Origin: a virus
Length of the DNA: 64,000 bases
IMG/VR virus record: IMGVR_UViG_3300009838_000018
Coordinates: 5,177-69,176 of that record
Direction: 5' to 3' (one strand)
The position numbers were made by a program, and so were the translations under genes. The notes beneath the pieces are model-generated. The model saw only the letters and a list, made by a program, of their open reading frames with translations, was not told the origin of the DNA and ran no database searches. Positions 6,923-15,382 of this stretch are shown in pieces; the first letter of the stretch is position 1, and each line of letters starts with the position of its first letter.

Positions 6923-8437
6923 TCAGATGTCGAAATCTCTCTCGAACCTCGAAAGAGGGATGAGGTTCCCCTCCTCTTCGGACCCATCTGCTGCGAAGGA
7001 CCACATGTGTTTCTTCGCACAGTGGTAGGCACGGATCTTGATCTGGCTCCGTTCCTCAACTGGTTTGTTTCGACCCCCGTACTCACCACAGTACGGGCAC
7101 TTGAGTTCTGCCATGGGTACCCCATCTTTCCCCAGGGGCTCGAAGTCCCGCTCCAAGGTCGCATACGGGGCGTCCTCCCAGTTGCTACTGATCTTGACCT
7201 CGGGCTCGAAACGTTCTACCCGTTGAAGCCGGACCATTCGTTGAACGTCATCGAGCTTGGTGACCCAGAGGGTCCTTCTGGGCCGTCGAAGGGTTCGGAT
7301 GAAGGCACCAGGGGCGACCCAGTTGGGGACATAGGCCCCGCTAGACCTGGGGACAATGGGAGTCAGTTCTGGACGATGGGGTCGAACCTCCAAGAGGGAC
7401 CCAGCAGGGCGCCAGTTCTGTTCCAGGTTGGTCATTGCAAAGCGAACGGGCCTGACCTCACCCTCCAAGGTCAAGGTCATGGCCCCGGTTAGAGGGTCAA
7501 GGCCCAACACTTGGTAGCTTTGGTTGTCTCTTCGCTGAACGATGTGAGATCCCACTGACAGCCAAGGTGGTGTTGGAGTCTCCAGTGGGCGGTACCAGGA
7601 CGCCACCTGTTGAATGTTGAAGGCTCGAACCCTGCCCCCAAGCTGAATAGGGCTCGTATCCGACCGTTCGATGTCACGAATGTGAACCTGCCCGTTGGAG
7701 ACCCCTGTGATGATCCCTCCTTGGTCACCTATGGTCGAAGCCAACCTGGCTCCGGGTCGCATCCAGCTTGGTGGTTCGGCCCTGACCTGCCTCAAGGTCA
7801 CGAAGTAGTGAGGGGTCAACCCAGTAGAGGTGGGGAGAACTCCGAACCGAGTTGGGGTCTCCGTCCTGGTCCGGTCGAGGGAGGTGGTGACTGATTCCAC
7901 TCGGAACTCTACCGTCTCTCCGTTCTCCTCCACTAGCATCCCATTGCGAAGAACTTCGACCCTCTGACCGGTCATCACCTGGAAGGGCATCGGGACGTTG
8001 TTGATCTCGATGATCGGACCCGTGGGGTGAGCCACCTGATGTTCGGTCACGCCGTCCATGGGTAGGGACACCCGAACCATCTCTGGCGGGTTCGGGGGGA
8101 AGGGGTCTTCCCCTACCGCAATGTCCCTTCTGGGGGGCATCGTTCCGACATACTCGGGGGGCCAGGAGACGTAAACGTTGCCTTGCCCAAAGCCGAACTG
8201 GTCCTCCCCAACAATGGTGAAGTCGTTACGCCTGATCTCTGGAAGCGAAATCCAGTCCCTCTCAAAGTTGAGCAAGGGGATCGAAACCACCTGGTCGTTG
8301 TTCACCCGGAGGTGTACCTCATCTGAGCCTATGAAGACCACATAGGCACGGGAGGCAGCCGCAACCTCCGTAGCACTTGGGTCACGGGGGCGGAGGTACA
8401 GTATCTCACCTATCTGAAGCCAGTTTGGAGCGGGCAC
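6923..8437 (-). CDS. multi-repeat protein (four PxW-x-x-G modules, zinc ribbon) with C-terminal SRFER tag
   Basis: APNWLQIG, PPSWMRPG, PPWLSVG, VPNWVAPG repeats; CPYC..YHC; ends SRFERDFDI. Confidence 0.8.
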   Translation of the reverse strand: MPAPNWLQIGEILYLRPRDPSATEVAAASRAYVVFIGSDEVHLRVNNDQVVSIPLLNFERDWISLPEIRRNDFTIVGEDQFGFGQGNVYVSWPPEYVGTMPPRRDIAVGEDPFPPNPPEMVRVSLPMDGVTEHQVAHPTGPIIEINNVPMPFQVMTGQRVEVLRNGMLVEENGETVEFRVESVTTSLDRTRTETPTRFGVLPTSTGLTPHYFVTLRQVRAEPPSWMRPGARLASTIGDQGGIITGVSNGQVHIRDIERSDTSPIQLGGRVRAFNIQQVASWYRPLETPTPPWLSVGSHIVQRRDNQSYQVLGLDPLTGAMTLTLEGEVRPVRFAMTNLEQNWRPAGSLLEVRPHRPELTPIVPRSSGAYVPNWVAPGAFIRTLRRPRRTLWVTKLDDVQRMVRLQRVERFEPEVKISSNWEDAPYATLERDFEPLGKDGVPMAELKCPYCGEYGGRNKPVEERSQIKIRAYHCAKKHMWSFAADGSEEEGNLIPLSRFERDFDI

Positions 8438-10997: not shown

Positions 10998-11872
10998 CTA
11001 GACCTCTTCATAGAGGATTCTTTCAAATCTGCTCCGACGGATGGTCACTTCGATAACCTCTGGAGGCGGCTGAAGCACTGGACCAGACCTGTCAATCAGG
11101 TTGGACCAGACCTGTCAATCAGGTCGAACCTTCGTTGCCGGATGTCATCCACTCGAATCGTCGGGTTCGAGATGATTTCAAACTCGGGTACCGTGACCCG
11201 TTGAGCCTGGATGGCTCTCGGGTTGACCACCCCTATTCCGATGTTCTCGGTCACCGTCCACCCAAGGGGGAGTCGGTGGGGCTCATCAGCCCCCATGACC
11301 GTCAACTCAGACCGTAGTGGGGTTGCAGCCATCGAGGCTTCGAGGTCTTGAAAGATTTGCCGGTCGAAGCTCTCCTGGATCTCTCTCACCGTCGCCTCAA
11401 TCATGTCAACGCTGAGGTTGGGCTGGGGGGCTTCTGGGTTGGCGAAAGTTGAGGGGGCCTCGATGCTCATCTGACTTGGGTCGAAGATCCCAATGAGCCC
11501 TGACGGGGGACTGGAAGACACGACGAACCCAACAGGGTTGTCTCCGTTCATGGTCAGTCCACCAGAGGTGGGATCGATTCCCACAGGGGTCCCAGGGACG
11601 ATTCTGGAGACCTGCATCGGACCCCAAATCGAGGGGATGAGTCCCTGTCGCATGACCGTCCCCTTGGAGTTCAAGAGGTAGCTGACCTGAGGGTTCTCCG
11701 GACCTAGGTCACGAAACTGGACCTCAACCCCCATCAAGTTGGGAACGGTCGGGTCCTCTCGAATCTGGAGGGATGCCAGGTTCCGGTCCCCTTGCAGAAG
11801 ACGGATCTCTTCCTGGAAGATTCGGTGCTCGTTCGAGTCTCGGGTTGGGTACCTGAGTGTCCAGGTGGGCAT
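10998..11872 (-). pseudogene. mosaic of major-capsid-like fragments, frameshifted near the 3' end by a 23-bp duplication
   Basis: The ORF now stops at 11096. Removing one copy of TGGACCAGACCTGTCAATCAGGT restores ...GPVLQPPPEVIEVTIRRSRFERILYEEV with stop at 10998-11000. Confidence 0.7.
11079..11124. repeat. perfect 23-bp tandem duplication
   Basis: TGGACCAGACCTGTCAATCAGGT at 11079-11101 and 11102-11124. Confidence 0.95.
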
Positions 11873-11903: not shown

Positions 11904-12290
11904 ATGCCACGGAAGAAAGACCCATGGTTGGCTCCCCTGGATGAGTCCTGGATCGAGGTGGGAAAGAAGATAATCCCACTGCCTCCAAATCTGGCTGGGA
12001 GCTATTCGTTCAGCTTTGGAGACTCCCCTAGTTGGAGCTGTAGCAATCTCCCTGCGAACCCGACTCCCCACGATATGCCGGTGTTCGTGATCTCAAGGAT
12101 TGATGTGACGGGGAACGGTACCCGGATGGTCCACTTCCACCTGGTGGCAGACCCTCGTCACGGGTCTGCTTGGTGGTCGAAGGACATCAAGTCGAAGTTT
12201 CGTCCGGCCCCTAGTCCGAAGAGAGCGCCTCGCCCGAAGAAGCCGAAGCCAACACCCTTGAGTCGGTTTGATCGTGAGGACGTAGTTTGA
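11904..12290 (+). CDS. hypothetical protein (W-x-x-x-G module) with C-terminal SRFDR tag
   Basis: ATG 11904 lies 10 nt after GGTGTA; ends KPTPLSRFDREDVV. Confidence 0.75.
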   Translation: MPRKKDPWLAPLDESWIEVGKKIIPLPPNLAGSYSFSFGDSPSWSCSNLPANPTPHDMPVFVISRIDVTGNGTRMVHFHLVADPRHGSAWWSKDIKSKFRPAPSPKRAPRPKKPKPTPLSRFDREDVV

Positions 12291-12522
12291 TGAAGACTGG
12301 GGTGTTCGGTCCCACCCAGGCCCCGATGGTGTTGAACTCGAAGAACTCAAGAGCAGCCTCGTAGTCCATCCCCTGCCCAACCAGAATCTCCAAGCACTTG
12401 TCGTAGTCGTAGGAGGCCACAGGGGGCTGGCAGGCTCGGTAGCAGATCCCTAGGTAGGCCCTCTCGAACCCATCGGCTAGGAGGGCATTCGGATTCTCAT
12501 CTTCGAGTTCTTCAATGCTCAT
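12211..12522 (-). CDS. conserved phage hypothetical protein
   Basis: LLADGFERAYLG..YDYDKCLEIL..ALEFFEFNTIGAWVGPNTPVF pattern common in phages. Confidence 0.7.
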   Translation of the reverse strand: MSIEELEDENPNALLADGFERAYLGICYRACQPPVASYDYDKCLEILVGQGMDYEAALEFFEFNTIGAWVGPNTPVFIKLRPHDQTDSRVLASASSGEALSSD

Positions 12523-12904: not shown

Positions 12905-14116
12905 CTACACCACGGGTTCCCTGGAGAAGCGATCTGCGGTGATGGTGATCTCTGGCATGATGATGGCTTGGGGTCCTGGGTCGGGGACGCCTGGCTGACG
13001 GAAGACTCGCAAGACCCCCTGGTGGCTTGCCAGAGGGGCCAAGGCGGGGTCACTGAGCAGAGCGATGAGGTCCATGTCCTCACCGTCTACACGGCAGCTA
13101 CGGGCCACCAGGACGCAAACCTGAGAGTAGTCCGAGTGGTGCATGTCATGGGCGGTTCCTCGACCTTGGATGAGCCGGAGGTACTGCCCGTTCGGCCCCT
13201 TGGCGAGGGATGCCACAGCTTCCCCTTTGATTCCTTGGTAAGAGGCCCCCTCGAAGTGCCACCCGTAGTTCATGGCCTTCCCGGTCTTCACCAGGAGGTC
13301 GTTGTCGATGACCCAGTGCTTGCCAACCGTACCCAGCAGCCCGGTGGGGTTTCCCAAGCTGACCAGGTCGGCATCGATCTTCCCCGAGTGCTCGATCATG
13401 GCAGCCGTGGATGACGTGATCTGCCTGGGGTGTGGGTTGAGCTTCACCGTCCGCTGGATCCACATGAGGTCGGCCAGCTTCGGGGTGAGCAGAAGGCACC
13501 CGGTCATGTCGGCAATCTTCTGCTGGGTCTCTGCCGTGACGTTGACCCGTACCCCTTCGATCTTCAGAGCATCGGAGAAGACTTGAAACTCAGCCGTATG
13601 CTCGTTGTAGGTTGAGGTTACGGTCGAGAAGCTGGCCTCGTAGTGCCCTTGCGAGACATAGTCGAGGATAGCATTCTCACGATCCGGACCAGCGTTCTCG
13701 GGAAGTTGAAGGGTCATGCTTCGACGGAGCATGACTGCTTTATGCTCGGCTCCCGAGGTCTCCAAGAGGTCGTGATTGACCACTCGGCTGAACCGAGTAG
13801 TCGGGTTCCCGGTGATGAGGCACCAAAGGTCTTCAATCTGGACTACTTTGCCCAGCGTGACTTTGTTCTTGATGGGGTTGAGGAATCCGACTGGAGTAGT
13901 CTCAGTAGAGCGAACTTCTAGCTGCCCGAACTTCAAAGGTAGGAGCTGGGGTACGGTCAGCACCTTCCAGGGGTCGTTCCCAGGGTTCCCCGTGTACATC
14001 CTGAGTTCGAGAAAGTCCTTCGGGTTGATCTCCACATAATCGGGGTCAAACCCCTCGATTCTGGACATCGTCGCTAGGACGGTGGCGATCTTCTTGCCAA
14101 GGGTCTCAGTCATCAT
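12905..14116 (-). CDS. hypothetical protein, possibly an enzyme (conserved-looking GKHW, NYGWH, H..HSDYSQ motifs)
   Basis: Start ATG 14116 overlaps the upstream stop; ends DRFSREPVV. Confidence 0.7.
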   Translation of the reverse strand: MMTETLGKKIATVLATMSRIEGFDPDYVEINPKDFLELRMYTGNPGNDPWKVLTVPQLLPLKFGQLEVRSTETTPVGFLNPIKNKVTLGKVVQIEDLWCLITGNPTTRFSRVVNHDLLETSGAEHKAVMLRRSMTLQLPENAGPDRENAILDYVSQGHYEASFSTVTSTYNEHTAEFQVFSDALKIEGVRVNVTAETQQKIADMTGCLLLTPKLADLMWIQRTVKLNPHPRQITSSTAAMIEHSGKIDADLVSLGNPTGLLGTVGKHWVIDNDLLVKTGKAMNYGWHFEGASYQGIKGEAVASLAKGPNGQYLRLIQGRGTAHDMHHSDYSQVCVLVARSCRVDGEDMDLIALLSDPALAPLASHQGVLRVFRQPGVPDPGPQAIIMPEITITADRFSREPVV

Positions 14117-14918
14117 CGAAGAGGATCCTGGAGAACCGGCTCTCGGGCTCCTTCGGCTCATCGCAAGGAGCCCATTCCCTTGCGAATGACGTGATGATCT
14201 GCCTTCGAGGTGGGTCGAACGACCGCCACACCTGGAACTCGACGTTGAGCATCTCGACCTTGATGATCCTGGCAAACTCCCCATTCCGGGTGACCCACTG
14301 ATCGAGCTTCAGCCACTCTGGGCGGACCCAGGGCTCGGTGGAGGTGGAGCACCCCATTGAAACCTCTGGGATGAGTCCAGACCTCAGGGTTGCCATGGCA
14401 CCTGGGTCGGGGTCACGGTCGTAGACTGGAAGGGCACCCTCTGGAATCTGGTCAACGAGGAACGTTCGTCTGGCTACCGAGCTGTAATCTATCCTTGCTC
14501 GAAGCGGGGCTATCATTGAGGCCGCAAGACGGGACCGCCCCTCAGAGCTGTTGATGAACTGGGAGATGATGCTCTCCCGAGCCTCTGGGGAGAGCATGTC
14601 CCCGTTCCGGTTCGGGGTGTCAGGGGGTCCTAGGAGGTTCTGGAACCCAACAACCGTTCTTTCAGTGAAGGGCCTTCGTCGCTCGTAGAGGTCATGGAGG
14701 GCATAGGCTTCTGGACCCTCCCGGTCGTTCGCCATCCTGACGTTGAGTCGGTAGTAGCGGGGGTTGGTCGAGCCAGGGTTGGGGTCAGGGGGGTCGAGGA
14801 TGAGAGTTGTACTGAGTACAAACTCGTCCTGCTCGAACCGAGCCCGGTCTACTCGGGCCTGGATCCGGTCGTCTACCGTGTTCTCATATCGAAGTGTCCA
14901 CAGGGGACCGGGTGGCAT
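14106..14918 (-). CDS. mosaic protein containing a major-capsid-like N-terminal fragment, a PxW module and an SRFSR tag
   Basis: IISQFINSSEGRSRLAASMIAPLRARIDYSSVARRTFLVDQIPEGALPVYDRDPD; ends ESRFSRILFDDD. Confidence 0.72.
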   Translation of the reverse strand: MPPGPLWTLRYENTVDDRIQARVDRARFEQDEFVLSTTLILDPPDPNPGSTNPRYYRLNVRMANDREGPEAYALHDLYERRRPFTERTVVGFQNLLGPPDTPNRNGDMLSPEARESIISQFINSSEGRSRLAASMIAPLRARIDYSSVARRTFLVDQIPEGALPVYDRDPDPGAMATLRSGLIPEVSMGCSTSTEPWVRPEWLKLDQWVTRNGEFARIIKVEMLNVEFQVWRSFDPPRRQIITSFAREWAPCDEPKEPESRFSRILFDDD

Positions 14919-14920
14919 GG

Positions 14921-15382
14921 CTAGGTCCTCATGAAGCGGAGTCGATACTCCCCGTCCGGCCATTGGACGATATGCGTCCACTCGATGACCGGTCGCACGA
15001 ACACCTTAGAGGGGTCACCCAGACTGAAGTAGATGACCGCCACGTCCTCTCTTGAGCCCTGTAGGAGGAGAGCGGTTCTCTCTACCGTGTAAAGCCCACC
15101 CTTGAAGTGCCGATATGCCCCTGGGGATACCTCCGAGTAGTTGTCCCGCCTCAGAAGAAAACGAAGCAGTTTCTCTGCCTGAAGGGGGTCACCACGGTCG
15201 ATGGGTGGGTACCGTTTCAGGAAGTTGTGGATCAGGCCACCAGGGGACTGACTGGAAGTGATGGCCTCTTCAGCCCTGTCTTGAGCAGCCAACACATCCC
15301 CACCCTGAAGCTGTGACTCGGGGACCCCGAGTGCATAGGCAGCCAGGACCCTGTAGGGGTCAATGAGGAATGAGGTGGACAT
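14921..15382 (-). CDS. DUF1653-like domain protein
   Basis: PGAYRHFKGGLYTV..VIYFSL..VFVRP..W; GGTGTA 10 nt upstream. Confidence 0.75.
   Translation of the reverse strand: MSTSFLIDPYRVLAAYALGVPESQLQGGDVLAAQDRAEEAITSSQSPGGLIHNFLKRYPPIDRGDPLQAEKLLRFLLRRDNYSEVSPGAYRHFKGGLYTVERTALLLQGSREDVAVIYFSLGDPSKVFVRPVIEWTHIVQWPDGEYRLRFMRT

Follow-up and report, generated by a model that had tools for sequence, protein, structure and literature searches.

We analysed a 64,000-nucleotide stretch of viral DNA (the window), which is bases 5177-69176 of the 78,938-base IMG/VR virus record IMGVR_UViG_3300009838_000018. (CheckV puts the completeness of the record at 16%.) At about 14 kb, the window encodes P0003, a protein in which the N-terminal piece of a capsid protein like gp27 of Bacillus phage G sits between a head domain of another kind and a small beta-barrel, with a short amphipathic C-terminal peptide that we call the RF tail. 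A second gene at about 11 kb encodes P0002, which combines a similar head domain with further parts of that capsid protein, in a permuted order (Table 1). We find that these two proteins belong to a family of previously undescribed, rearranged derivatives of capsid proteins, from a clade of huge phages in metagenomes of anaerobic digesters and wastewater.

In a database search, contigs carrying the same proteins as the window reached 407 kb, so the source of the window is a huge phage. A protein identical to P0003 is present on 7 contigs of up to 407 kb. The sequencing runs whose DNA holds this stretch are from anaerobic digesters and wastewater, and they come from several studies (2016-2025).

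P0003 is a protein-coding gene. Its GC content at the first, second and third codon positions (0.62, 0.48 and 0.69) is of the coding type and is like that of the adjacent genes. The gene directly abuts the preceding DUF1653 gene, with no gap, and its 3' end overlaps the start of a gene for a protein of 403 amino acids. (The longest frame, P0001, opens at a GTG at 14981, upstream of the ATG of P0003.) Contigs from metatranscriptomes (X16) cover parts of both mosaic genes; such libraries may contain DNA, so these contigs cannot show transcription.

Capsid-protein pieces in P0003 and P0002

Residues 109-186 of P0003 (130-207 of P0001) match residues 4-81 of PDB entry 6wkk_A, "Gp27 major capsid protein" (E = 5.6e-14). 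We take this entry to be gp27 of phage G, from the tblastn match and the literature given below and from Gonzalez et al. 2020. The same piece matches positions 37-108 of phrog_2522, "major head protein" (E = 7.9e-10), and positions 2-71 of the 280 in NF042927 (capsid_Caudo_2 in NCBIfam, a model of HK97-fold major capsid proteins; E = 1.9e-7). In a tblastn search of deposited phages, residues 109-185 matched gp27 of Bacillus phage G, which is annotated as the major head protein (41.6% identity, E = 5e-12), and the search also matched an uncultured 485-kb phage and the jumbo phage Tunturi_5. The role of gp27 as the capsid protein of phage G is described elsewhere (PMC12484599). This family's canonical capsid proteins, of about 290 amino acids, come from IMG/VR records of 50-497 kb, and their identity to the capsid piece of P0003 is 53-59%. 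Most of the invariant and near-invariant columns in our alignment of P0003 and its collinear relatives (A2) lie in this piece. The initial annotation of this DNA, which was made by a model from the sequence alone, had recognised 14406-14579 as a capsid N-terminus. Profile searches bear this out: the capsid similarity is present, and that segment lies within the longer match to 6wkk.

P0003 is a derivative of the phage-G-type capsid family and not a functional member of it. Our hidden Markov model (HMM) of the major capsid protein (MCP) covers only positions 7-73 in P0003, which is short of a complete HK97 fold. P0003 lacks the E-loop tip, the spine helix, the A-domain and the C-terminal hairpin, and retains about a quarter of the gp27 fold. 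Against NF042927 it scores 30.3 bits, below the whole-protein cut-off of 80.

Around the capsid piece, AlphaFold2 (with a 20-row alignment) gave a confident beta-alpha-beta-beta-alpha domain at residues 6-80, within the head. The PxW module that the initial annotation placed after the capsid piece is modelled as a confident small beta-barrel, and the capsid piece itself has low to medium confidence. A Foldseek search of the P0003 model against the PDB gave no match at E <= 0.001; the likenesses that it listed were generic ferredoxin-like folds (ribosomal S6, ACT and ABM) and KOW/SH3.

The same annotation had also likened PNRNGD and LRSGLIPEVSMGCS to motifs of prohead proteases. We reject this likeness. 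P0003 has no Pfam match at E <= 1, and 20 members of its family have none at E <= 10. PF04586 was not found in the 79-kb record, and hhalign comparison of the A2 profile with the HK97 protease gp4 gave a probability of 0.08%. The neighbours that a protein language model gave for P0003 include protease clusters at 0.87-0.89, under the tool's mark of 0.9. LRSGLIPEV belongs to the capsid protein: it is the end of the alignment with 6wkk.

P0002 has, as had been proposed, other parts of the capsid protein and not the N-terminal part: it matches residues 236-276 of 6wkk and then residues 76-117 (MCP HMM positions 249-288 and then 88-120). P0002 and P0003 thus hold complementary parts, with the break at the tip of the E-loop. 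Both lack this tip (HMM positions 74-87) and the A-domain (about 150-230), so neither protein could build a capsomer. In the AlphaFold2 model of P0002, a helix ahead of the capsid pieces (residues 155-183, with a predicted local distance difference test score, or pLDDT, of about 88) resembles the spine helix, and everything outside of the head and this helix is modelled as a disordered monomer. (A prediction of the complex of P0002 and P0003 scored 0.00 against a mark of 0.32, and we use it neither for nor against binding.)

The resemblance of the two proteins at their ends had been noticed from short motifs. At the N-terminus, it extends far past the WTLRY pentapeptide: an HMM built from the N-terminal 100 amino acids of P0003 and its relatives matches the head of P0002 over 73 residues (E = 2.4e-9). 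P0002 and P0003 are paralogous members of one family. At the C-terminus, the resemblance holds in part. SRFSRILFDDD is in frame at the end of P0003, but in P0002, SRFERILYEEV is out of frame behind a 23-bp duplication. With a single copy of the 23 bp, P0002 would extend to ...IRRSRFERILYEEV, with a stop at 10998. A single copy is what we found in contigs from two other wastewater runs (X4 and X5; 2021 and 2025), and both copies are present, as in the window, in a digester run from 2016 (X2). Because other populations have one copy, the truncation of P0002 is a polymorphism between strains, and P0002 with its RF tail does occur in nature.

Table 1. Positions in the window of the two mosaic genes and of their parts
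Feature	Position	Strand	Evidence or remark
Type I mosaic gene P0003, 270 amino acids, starts MPPGPLWTLRY	14106-14918	-	ATG open reading frame; stop codon 14106-14108
P0003 head domain, residues 1-84, ferredoxin-like beta-alpha-beta-beta-alpha	14667-14918	-	AlphaFold2 pLDDT about 80-90; homologous to P0002 head
P0003 low-confidence linker carrying PNRNGD (14598-14615)	14595-14666	-	pLDDT below 50
P0003 capsid N-terminal piece, residues 109-186 = gp27 4-81 (N-arm helix to first E-loop strand)	14361-14594	-	Profile and tblastn matches
P0003 PxW small beta-barrel, residues 196-256	14151-14333	-	AlphaFold2 strands 208-252, pLDDT above 90; weak KOW/SH3-like fold matches
P0003 Pro/Glu-rich linker and C-terminal RF peptide (...EPKEPESRFSRILFDDD)	14109-14150	-	Short helix 261-266 in model, over RFSRIL
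Type II mosaic gene P0002, 258 amino acids as it stands	11096-11872	-	Open reading frame; capsid and head matches
P0002 head domain, residues 1-73	11654-11872	-	Head HMM; AlphaFold2 pLDDT 96
P0002 permuted capsid pieces	11108-11332	-	gp27 236-276 (residues 181-221), then gp27 76-117 (residues 214-255, ending RRFDLIDR)
Exact 23-bp tandem duplication	11079-11124		Shifts P0002 out of the frame of its RF tail

Architectures, selection and origin of the family

Members of the WTLRY-head capsid-mosaic family have the head domain, pieces of a phage-G-type capsid protein without its A-domain, and a C-terminal tail of the form R-F/W-x-R-I/L with acidic residues. A word-index search with P0003 found 22 homologues (30-83% identity, many over 90% of the length) on contigs of up to 442 kb. 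About 25 relatives are full-length and share the architecture of P0003 (type I), with all modules collinear, at identities down to 31%. An exhaustive phmmer search with P0002 found 191 proteins, 25 of them at E <= 1e-10. Many of these relatives match residues 181-255 of P0002, across the permuted junction, in one stretch; canonical capsid proteins match this region in two stretches. The permuted junction (from MCP HMM position 291 to 88) is common to at least 22 cluster representatives. A protein family with a WTLRY-type head, capsid pieces and a tail of the RF(E/D)R type, as the initial annotation had suggested, is therefore real.

We took a census of the architectures of the relatives with our own HMMs of the capsid protein (mcp), the head and the barrel. 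Besides type I, which has the head, optionally PNxNGD, mcp 7-73, the barrel and the tail, there is a type I+ that also retains mcp 88-122, and a single protein with the head, mcp 10-179 and the tail. Type II, to which P0002 belongs, has the head, a PLQVS motif, mcp 249-291, mcp 88-120 (or to 147) and the tail. A headless type has mcp 120-180, mcp 230-291, mcp 88-120 and a W-type tail. The head HMM matches both proteins in the window and at least 40 database proteins, and the heads start MPxW(T/S)(L/I)xY.

Two short motifs recur across these architectures. PNxNGD is found in 19 proteins of the census (18 distinct sequences) ahead of different capsid pieces: in type I it directly precedes the N-arm, and in P0033 and P0042 it comes just before the C-terminal hairpin. 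Also, 11 type II or headless relatives (P0026, P0027, P0029, P0031, P0032, P0034, P0037, P0045, P0056, P0060 and P0062) share a segment with (L)RG(R/Q)T, 6-8 residues, DD or DE, and a hydrophobic residue, in which we noted a likeness to the Walker B strand of large terminases. We do not accept this likeness: one of six peptides matched (P0029 residues 5-50 against Terminase_6N positions 85-112, E = 0.14). Terminase_6N was not found in the window's record or in four other records (G000-G004).

Genes of type I and type II travel together. They are 1-4 kb apart in the window, in the IMG/VR record G002, and at loci L008, L010 and (weakly) L009, with syntenic flanking genes for DUF1653, NADAR, HAD_SAK_2, Peptidase_C1 and AAA proteins. 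The head family is present in the window's record (G000) and in G001 and G002. Three phage-G-like records with the canonical capsid gene lack it, and our search of deposited phages, which included tblastn, found it in none of them. A literature search turned up no description of proteins made of capsid fragments in this way.

Several observations show that these genes are under selection. First, in a comparison of P0003 with one orthologue (83% identical), the ratio of nonsynonymous to synonymous substitution rates (dN/dS) was 0.21 overall, 0.16 in the barrel, and lowest in the capsid piece, at 0.14. In this one pair, dN/dS was 0.14-0.28 in every module longer than 14 residues. Second, a strain that is about 88% identical (run X4) has indels of +1, -1, -2 and -1 at 14347-14372, for a net change of -3 bases. 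These indels are in the linker after the capsid piece, and they keep the frame of the mosaic gene.

The initial annotation had suggested that the WTLRY head and the RF tail form a scaffold that samples fragments of structural genes. The family is real, but we do not see repeated capture: type I proteins are collinear, the 291-to-88 junction is shared, and dN/dS is low. The tree of the capsid piece (62 columns) has no resolution, and neither shows nor excludes a single origin of the head-linked pieces. The data fit an origin from old paralogues of a capsid gene that were fused to a new head domain, without the E-loop tip and A-domain, and permuted, followed by descent with loss of modules.

The RF peptide and its bearers

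The RF tail is not confined to the mosaic proteins. Among the 901 frames of the window, 14 end with R-[FW]-x-[RK] within the last 16 residues, and we judged 12 of these to be real genes. The internal density of the motif is 0.004 per 16 amino acids. Pfam and PDB searches yielded no function for the RF-tagged neighbours of the mosaic genes.

A similar peptide is found on canonical capsid proteins. Of 41 full-length representatives, 26 are extended at the N-terminus and 18 at the C-terminus. Most of the N-terminal extensions (21 of 26) start with M-x-R-[YF]-x-[IL]-x-L-G-K, which is followed by a linker rich in proline and lysine, and 6 of the 18 C-terminal extensions end in a similar R-[YF]-x-[IL] motif. 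Short peptides of this kind are therefore native to the shell protein's own ends. In the capsid proteins, the peptide may act as a built-in scaffold of minimal size or as an address. (Capsid proteins with such extensions include P0021, P0051, P0058, P0059, P0074-P0078, P0082 and P0086, and several end with ...R-[YF]-x-[ILM]-[LIM].)

One RF-tailed protein in the window has a relative in a head module. The gene at 6923-8437 (minus strand) encodes a 504-amino-acid PxW protein with several PxW barrels and the tail SRFERDFDI, and the HMM of the P0003 barrel is weakly similar to it (full-sequence E = 6e-4). Its homologue is part of a 1510-amino-acid open reading frame that immediately follows the portal gene within the head module of the 497-kb phage-G-like record G004 (25.8% identity over 271 amino acids, E = 8e-13). 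We also considered whether the 504-amino-acid protein might hold a fourth capsid piece (8069-8185; residues of about 85-123 against gp27 224-258). The tblastn E value was 9.7e-5 and the MCP HMM gave E = 1.4, and we rejected this candidate.

Near the mosaic genes, the 403-amino-acid protein (12905-14116, minus strand) ends with ...ADRFSREPVV, which is an RF-type tail; Pfam and PDB searches found no relative for it. A plus-strand open reading frame at 11904-12290, between the two minus-strand genes of the mosaic locus, has a PxW-like start and the tail PLSRFDREDVV. It overlaps the end of the phrog_13182 gene (12211-12522), and the gene calls on related contigs do not include it.

Possible roles of the mosaic proteins

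What might these proteins do? We think that P0003 and P0002 could be accessory proteins of the phage head, or proteins that dock in the capsid interior, and not subunits of the shell; we give this a probability of roughly 40%. The RF peptide would serve as an address that directs its bearer into the procapsid during assembly. Once there, the capsid pieces that remain would imitate the N-arm and P-domain contacts of real capsid subunits and so dock on them, and the head domain would be a payload or an organiser. The genes would have arisen from duplicated capsid genes that were fused to the head domain and then suffered deletion and permutation. The models show the head and barrel with confidence but leave the capsid pieces disordered in the monomer, which fits folding on a partner.

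There are precedents for an address of this kind. The capsid targeting sequences of T4, the C-terminal segment of the HK97 protease, the cargo-loading peptides of encapsulins and the C-terminus of the P22 scaffold all bind the capsid interior. As in those systems, a short terminal peptide lies behind a flexible linker on otherwise unrelated proteins, and the same peptide is found on several such proteins from one genome. The RF motif (R-F/Y/W-x-R/I-I/L with acidic residues) is unlike any of these named address peptides. A role in the head is also favoured by the homology of the pieces to a capsid protein and the conservation of the family, by the presence of RF tails both on genes of the window and on the termini of canonical capsid proteins, by the homologue of the 504-amino-acid protein beside a portal gene, by the pairing of type I and type II, by purifying selection, and by the intact RF tail of the partner in other populations.

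Several findings weigh against a role inside the capsid. First, the mosaic locus is outside of any recognisable structural module, and its neighbours are genes for DUF1653, NADAR, HAD_SAK_2, Peptidase_C1, AAA and GIY-YIG proteins. Second, the phage of the window shares few genes with the phage-G-like records that bear the canonical capsid gene. Third, searches of the 79-kb record, which gave only three fragment matches, and of a 252-kb relative (G001) did not turn up that phage's own capsid gene, so any match of the pieces to its own shell protein is conjectural. (P0021 is the closest canonical capsid protein, and a word search from it gave none on the contigs of 407 kb and 442 kb either.) Fourth, P0002 is truncated in the window and in run X2 and lacks its RF tail there, so this tail must be dispensable at least in the digester populations of 2016. 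Finally, RF tails and the peptides at the ends of capsid proteins resemble each other in a short motif, with no statistical test behind the likeness.

The location of the genes, among non-structural and possibly early genes, is easier to understand if the mosaic proteins are regulators or chaperones of assembly. In the cytoplasm, their capsid fragments would attach to scaffold or to capsid protein that is still free and cap the contact surfaces of the N-arm and P-domain, and this capping would delay or steer the polymerisation of a very large shell (like that of phage G, with a high T-number). The peripheral contact elements are kept while the A-domain, which forms capsomers, and the tip of the E-loop are deleted, and the capsid piece is the best-conserved part of the protein; both points favour this role. 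But capping does not explain why many unrelated proteins share the RF tail, and the natural loss of the tail of P0002 suggests that the role is non-essential. We consider this regulatory role unlikely, although it is the strongest of the alternatives.

A decoy or a poison seems less probable again. Here, epitopes of the capsid protein would soak up host sensors of the CapRel or Lit type, or would spoil the assembly of co-infecting phages whose capsid proteins are of the same family. Some neighbouring genes are accessory or resemble counter-defence genes (NADAR and a gene of the 2',5' RNA ligase family), the order of the modules varies widely across lineages, and some relatives carry the short segment likened above to the Walker B strand. 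That likeness is not significant, however, and dN/dS is low; the one pair tested gave no hint of diversifying selection. Also, no defence sensor is known for this host, and a decoy would need neither the RF tail nor the barrel. We are slightly more doubtful of a specific version in which the proteins are multi-epitope decoys: as soluble proteins, they would present the best-conserved pieces of morphogenetic proteins that are exposed to sensors (strands of the capsid N-arm and P-domain and, in some relatives, a Walker-B-like strand of terminase). They would blunt host sensors triggered by capsid or terminase, or poison assembly in rival phages, and this conflict would reshuffle the order of their modules from lineage to lineage.

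It is highly improbable that P0002 and P0003 are the two halves of a split capsid protein, which jointly form one HK97 fold and a real shell subunit. Their breakpoints are complementary (gp27 4-81 in one, 76-117 and 236-276 in the other) and their homologous heads could pair. But both lack the A-domain (about 150-235) and the tip of the E-loop, the partner is truncated by a frameshift in the window, the capsid pieces are unfolded in the models, and the genes are outside of any head module. Least credible of all is that these are decaying remnants of capsid genes without a function, as their fragmentary capsid content and the frameshift in the partner might suggest, given the purifying selection, an architecture kept in more than 20 lineages at 31-83% identity, the compensating in-frame indels in a divergent strain, and the intact allele of the partner in other populations.

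Whichever role is correct, the mosaic proteins differ from the capsid-related proteins that they resemble most. P0003 shares the N-arm to the first E-loop strand with phage G gp27, and P0002 shares residues 76-117 and 236-276; unlike gp27, P0003 adds foreign head, barrel and tail modules. The vertex protein of T4, gp24, is a paralogue of the shell protein gp23, with a complete HK97 fold that forms pentamers. The mosaic genes are similar in that a second capsid-derived gene would stand beside the shell gene (which we infer from the family relationship), but the fold of their products is partial and rearranged and cannot form capsomers. The capsid protein of BPP-1 has a permuted Johnson fold, with the order N-beta-alpha instead of N-alpha-beta, and it was argued that only two topologies are feasible for the complete fold (PMC3863775). 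As in BPP-1, the natural order of elements is changed in type II, where the C-terminal beta-hairpin precedes a strand and the spine helix. Unlike BPP-1, whose whole fold builds a shell, type II moves the last strand of the N-element behind the hairpin and has lost the A-domain. Type II does not have the complete BPP-1 topology: its hairpin is followed by a strand (and then a helix in relatives such as P0026 and P0031), its N-element is split, and it has no A-domain.

HK97-fold capsid proteins have been treated as indivisible. This family, in genomes of at least 400 kb, keeps only peripheral contact elements, in permuted order and joined to new domains, and keeps them under selection. The permuted P-domain module without an A-domain amounts to an experiment by nature on which elements of the Johnson fold can exist by themselves. 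If docking by the RF peptide is correct, then it would point to a simple code that addresses proteins for loading into very large capsids, which would bear on how megaphages assemble shells of high T-number and on what they inject, and might provide a handle for engineering. If the mosaic proteins are instead regulators or decoys, then they would be a new use by viruses of pieces of their own coat.

Capsid fragments are also found outside of the head-domain family. G004, which has a canonical capsid gene and lacks the head-domain family, has two more open reading frames with capsid fragments. One (L040, G004:313967-314173) has profile positions 33-101 in a 113-amino-acid frame with an in-frame TGA, and the other (L043, G004:494105-494329) has positions 190-264 in a frame of 375 amino acids.

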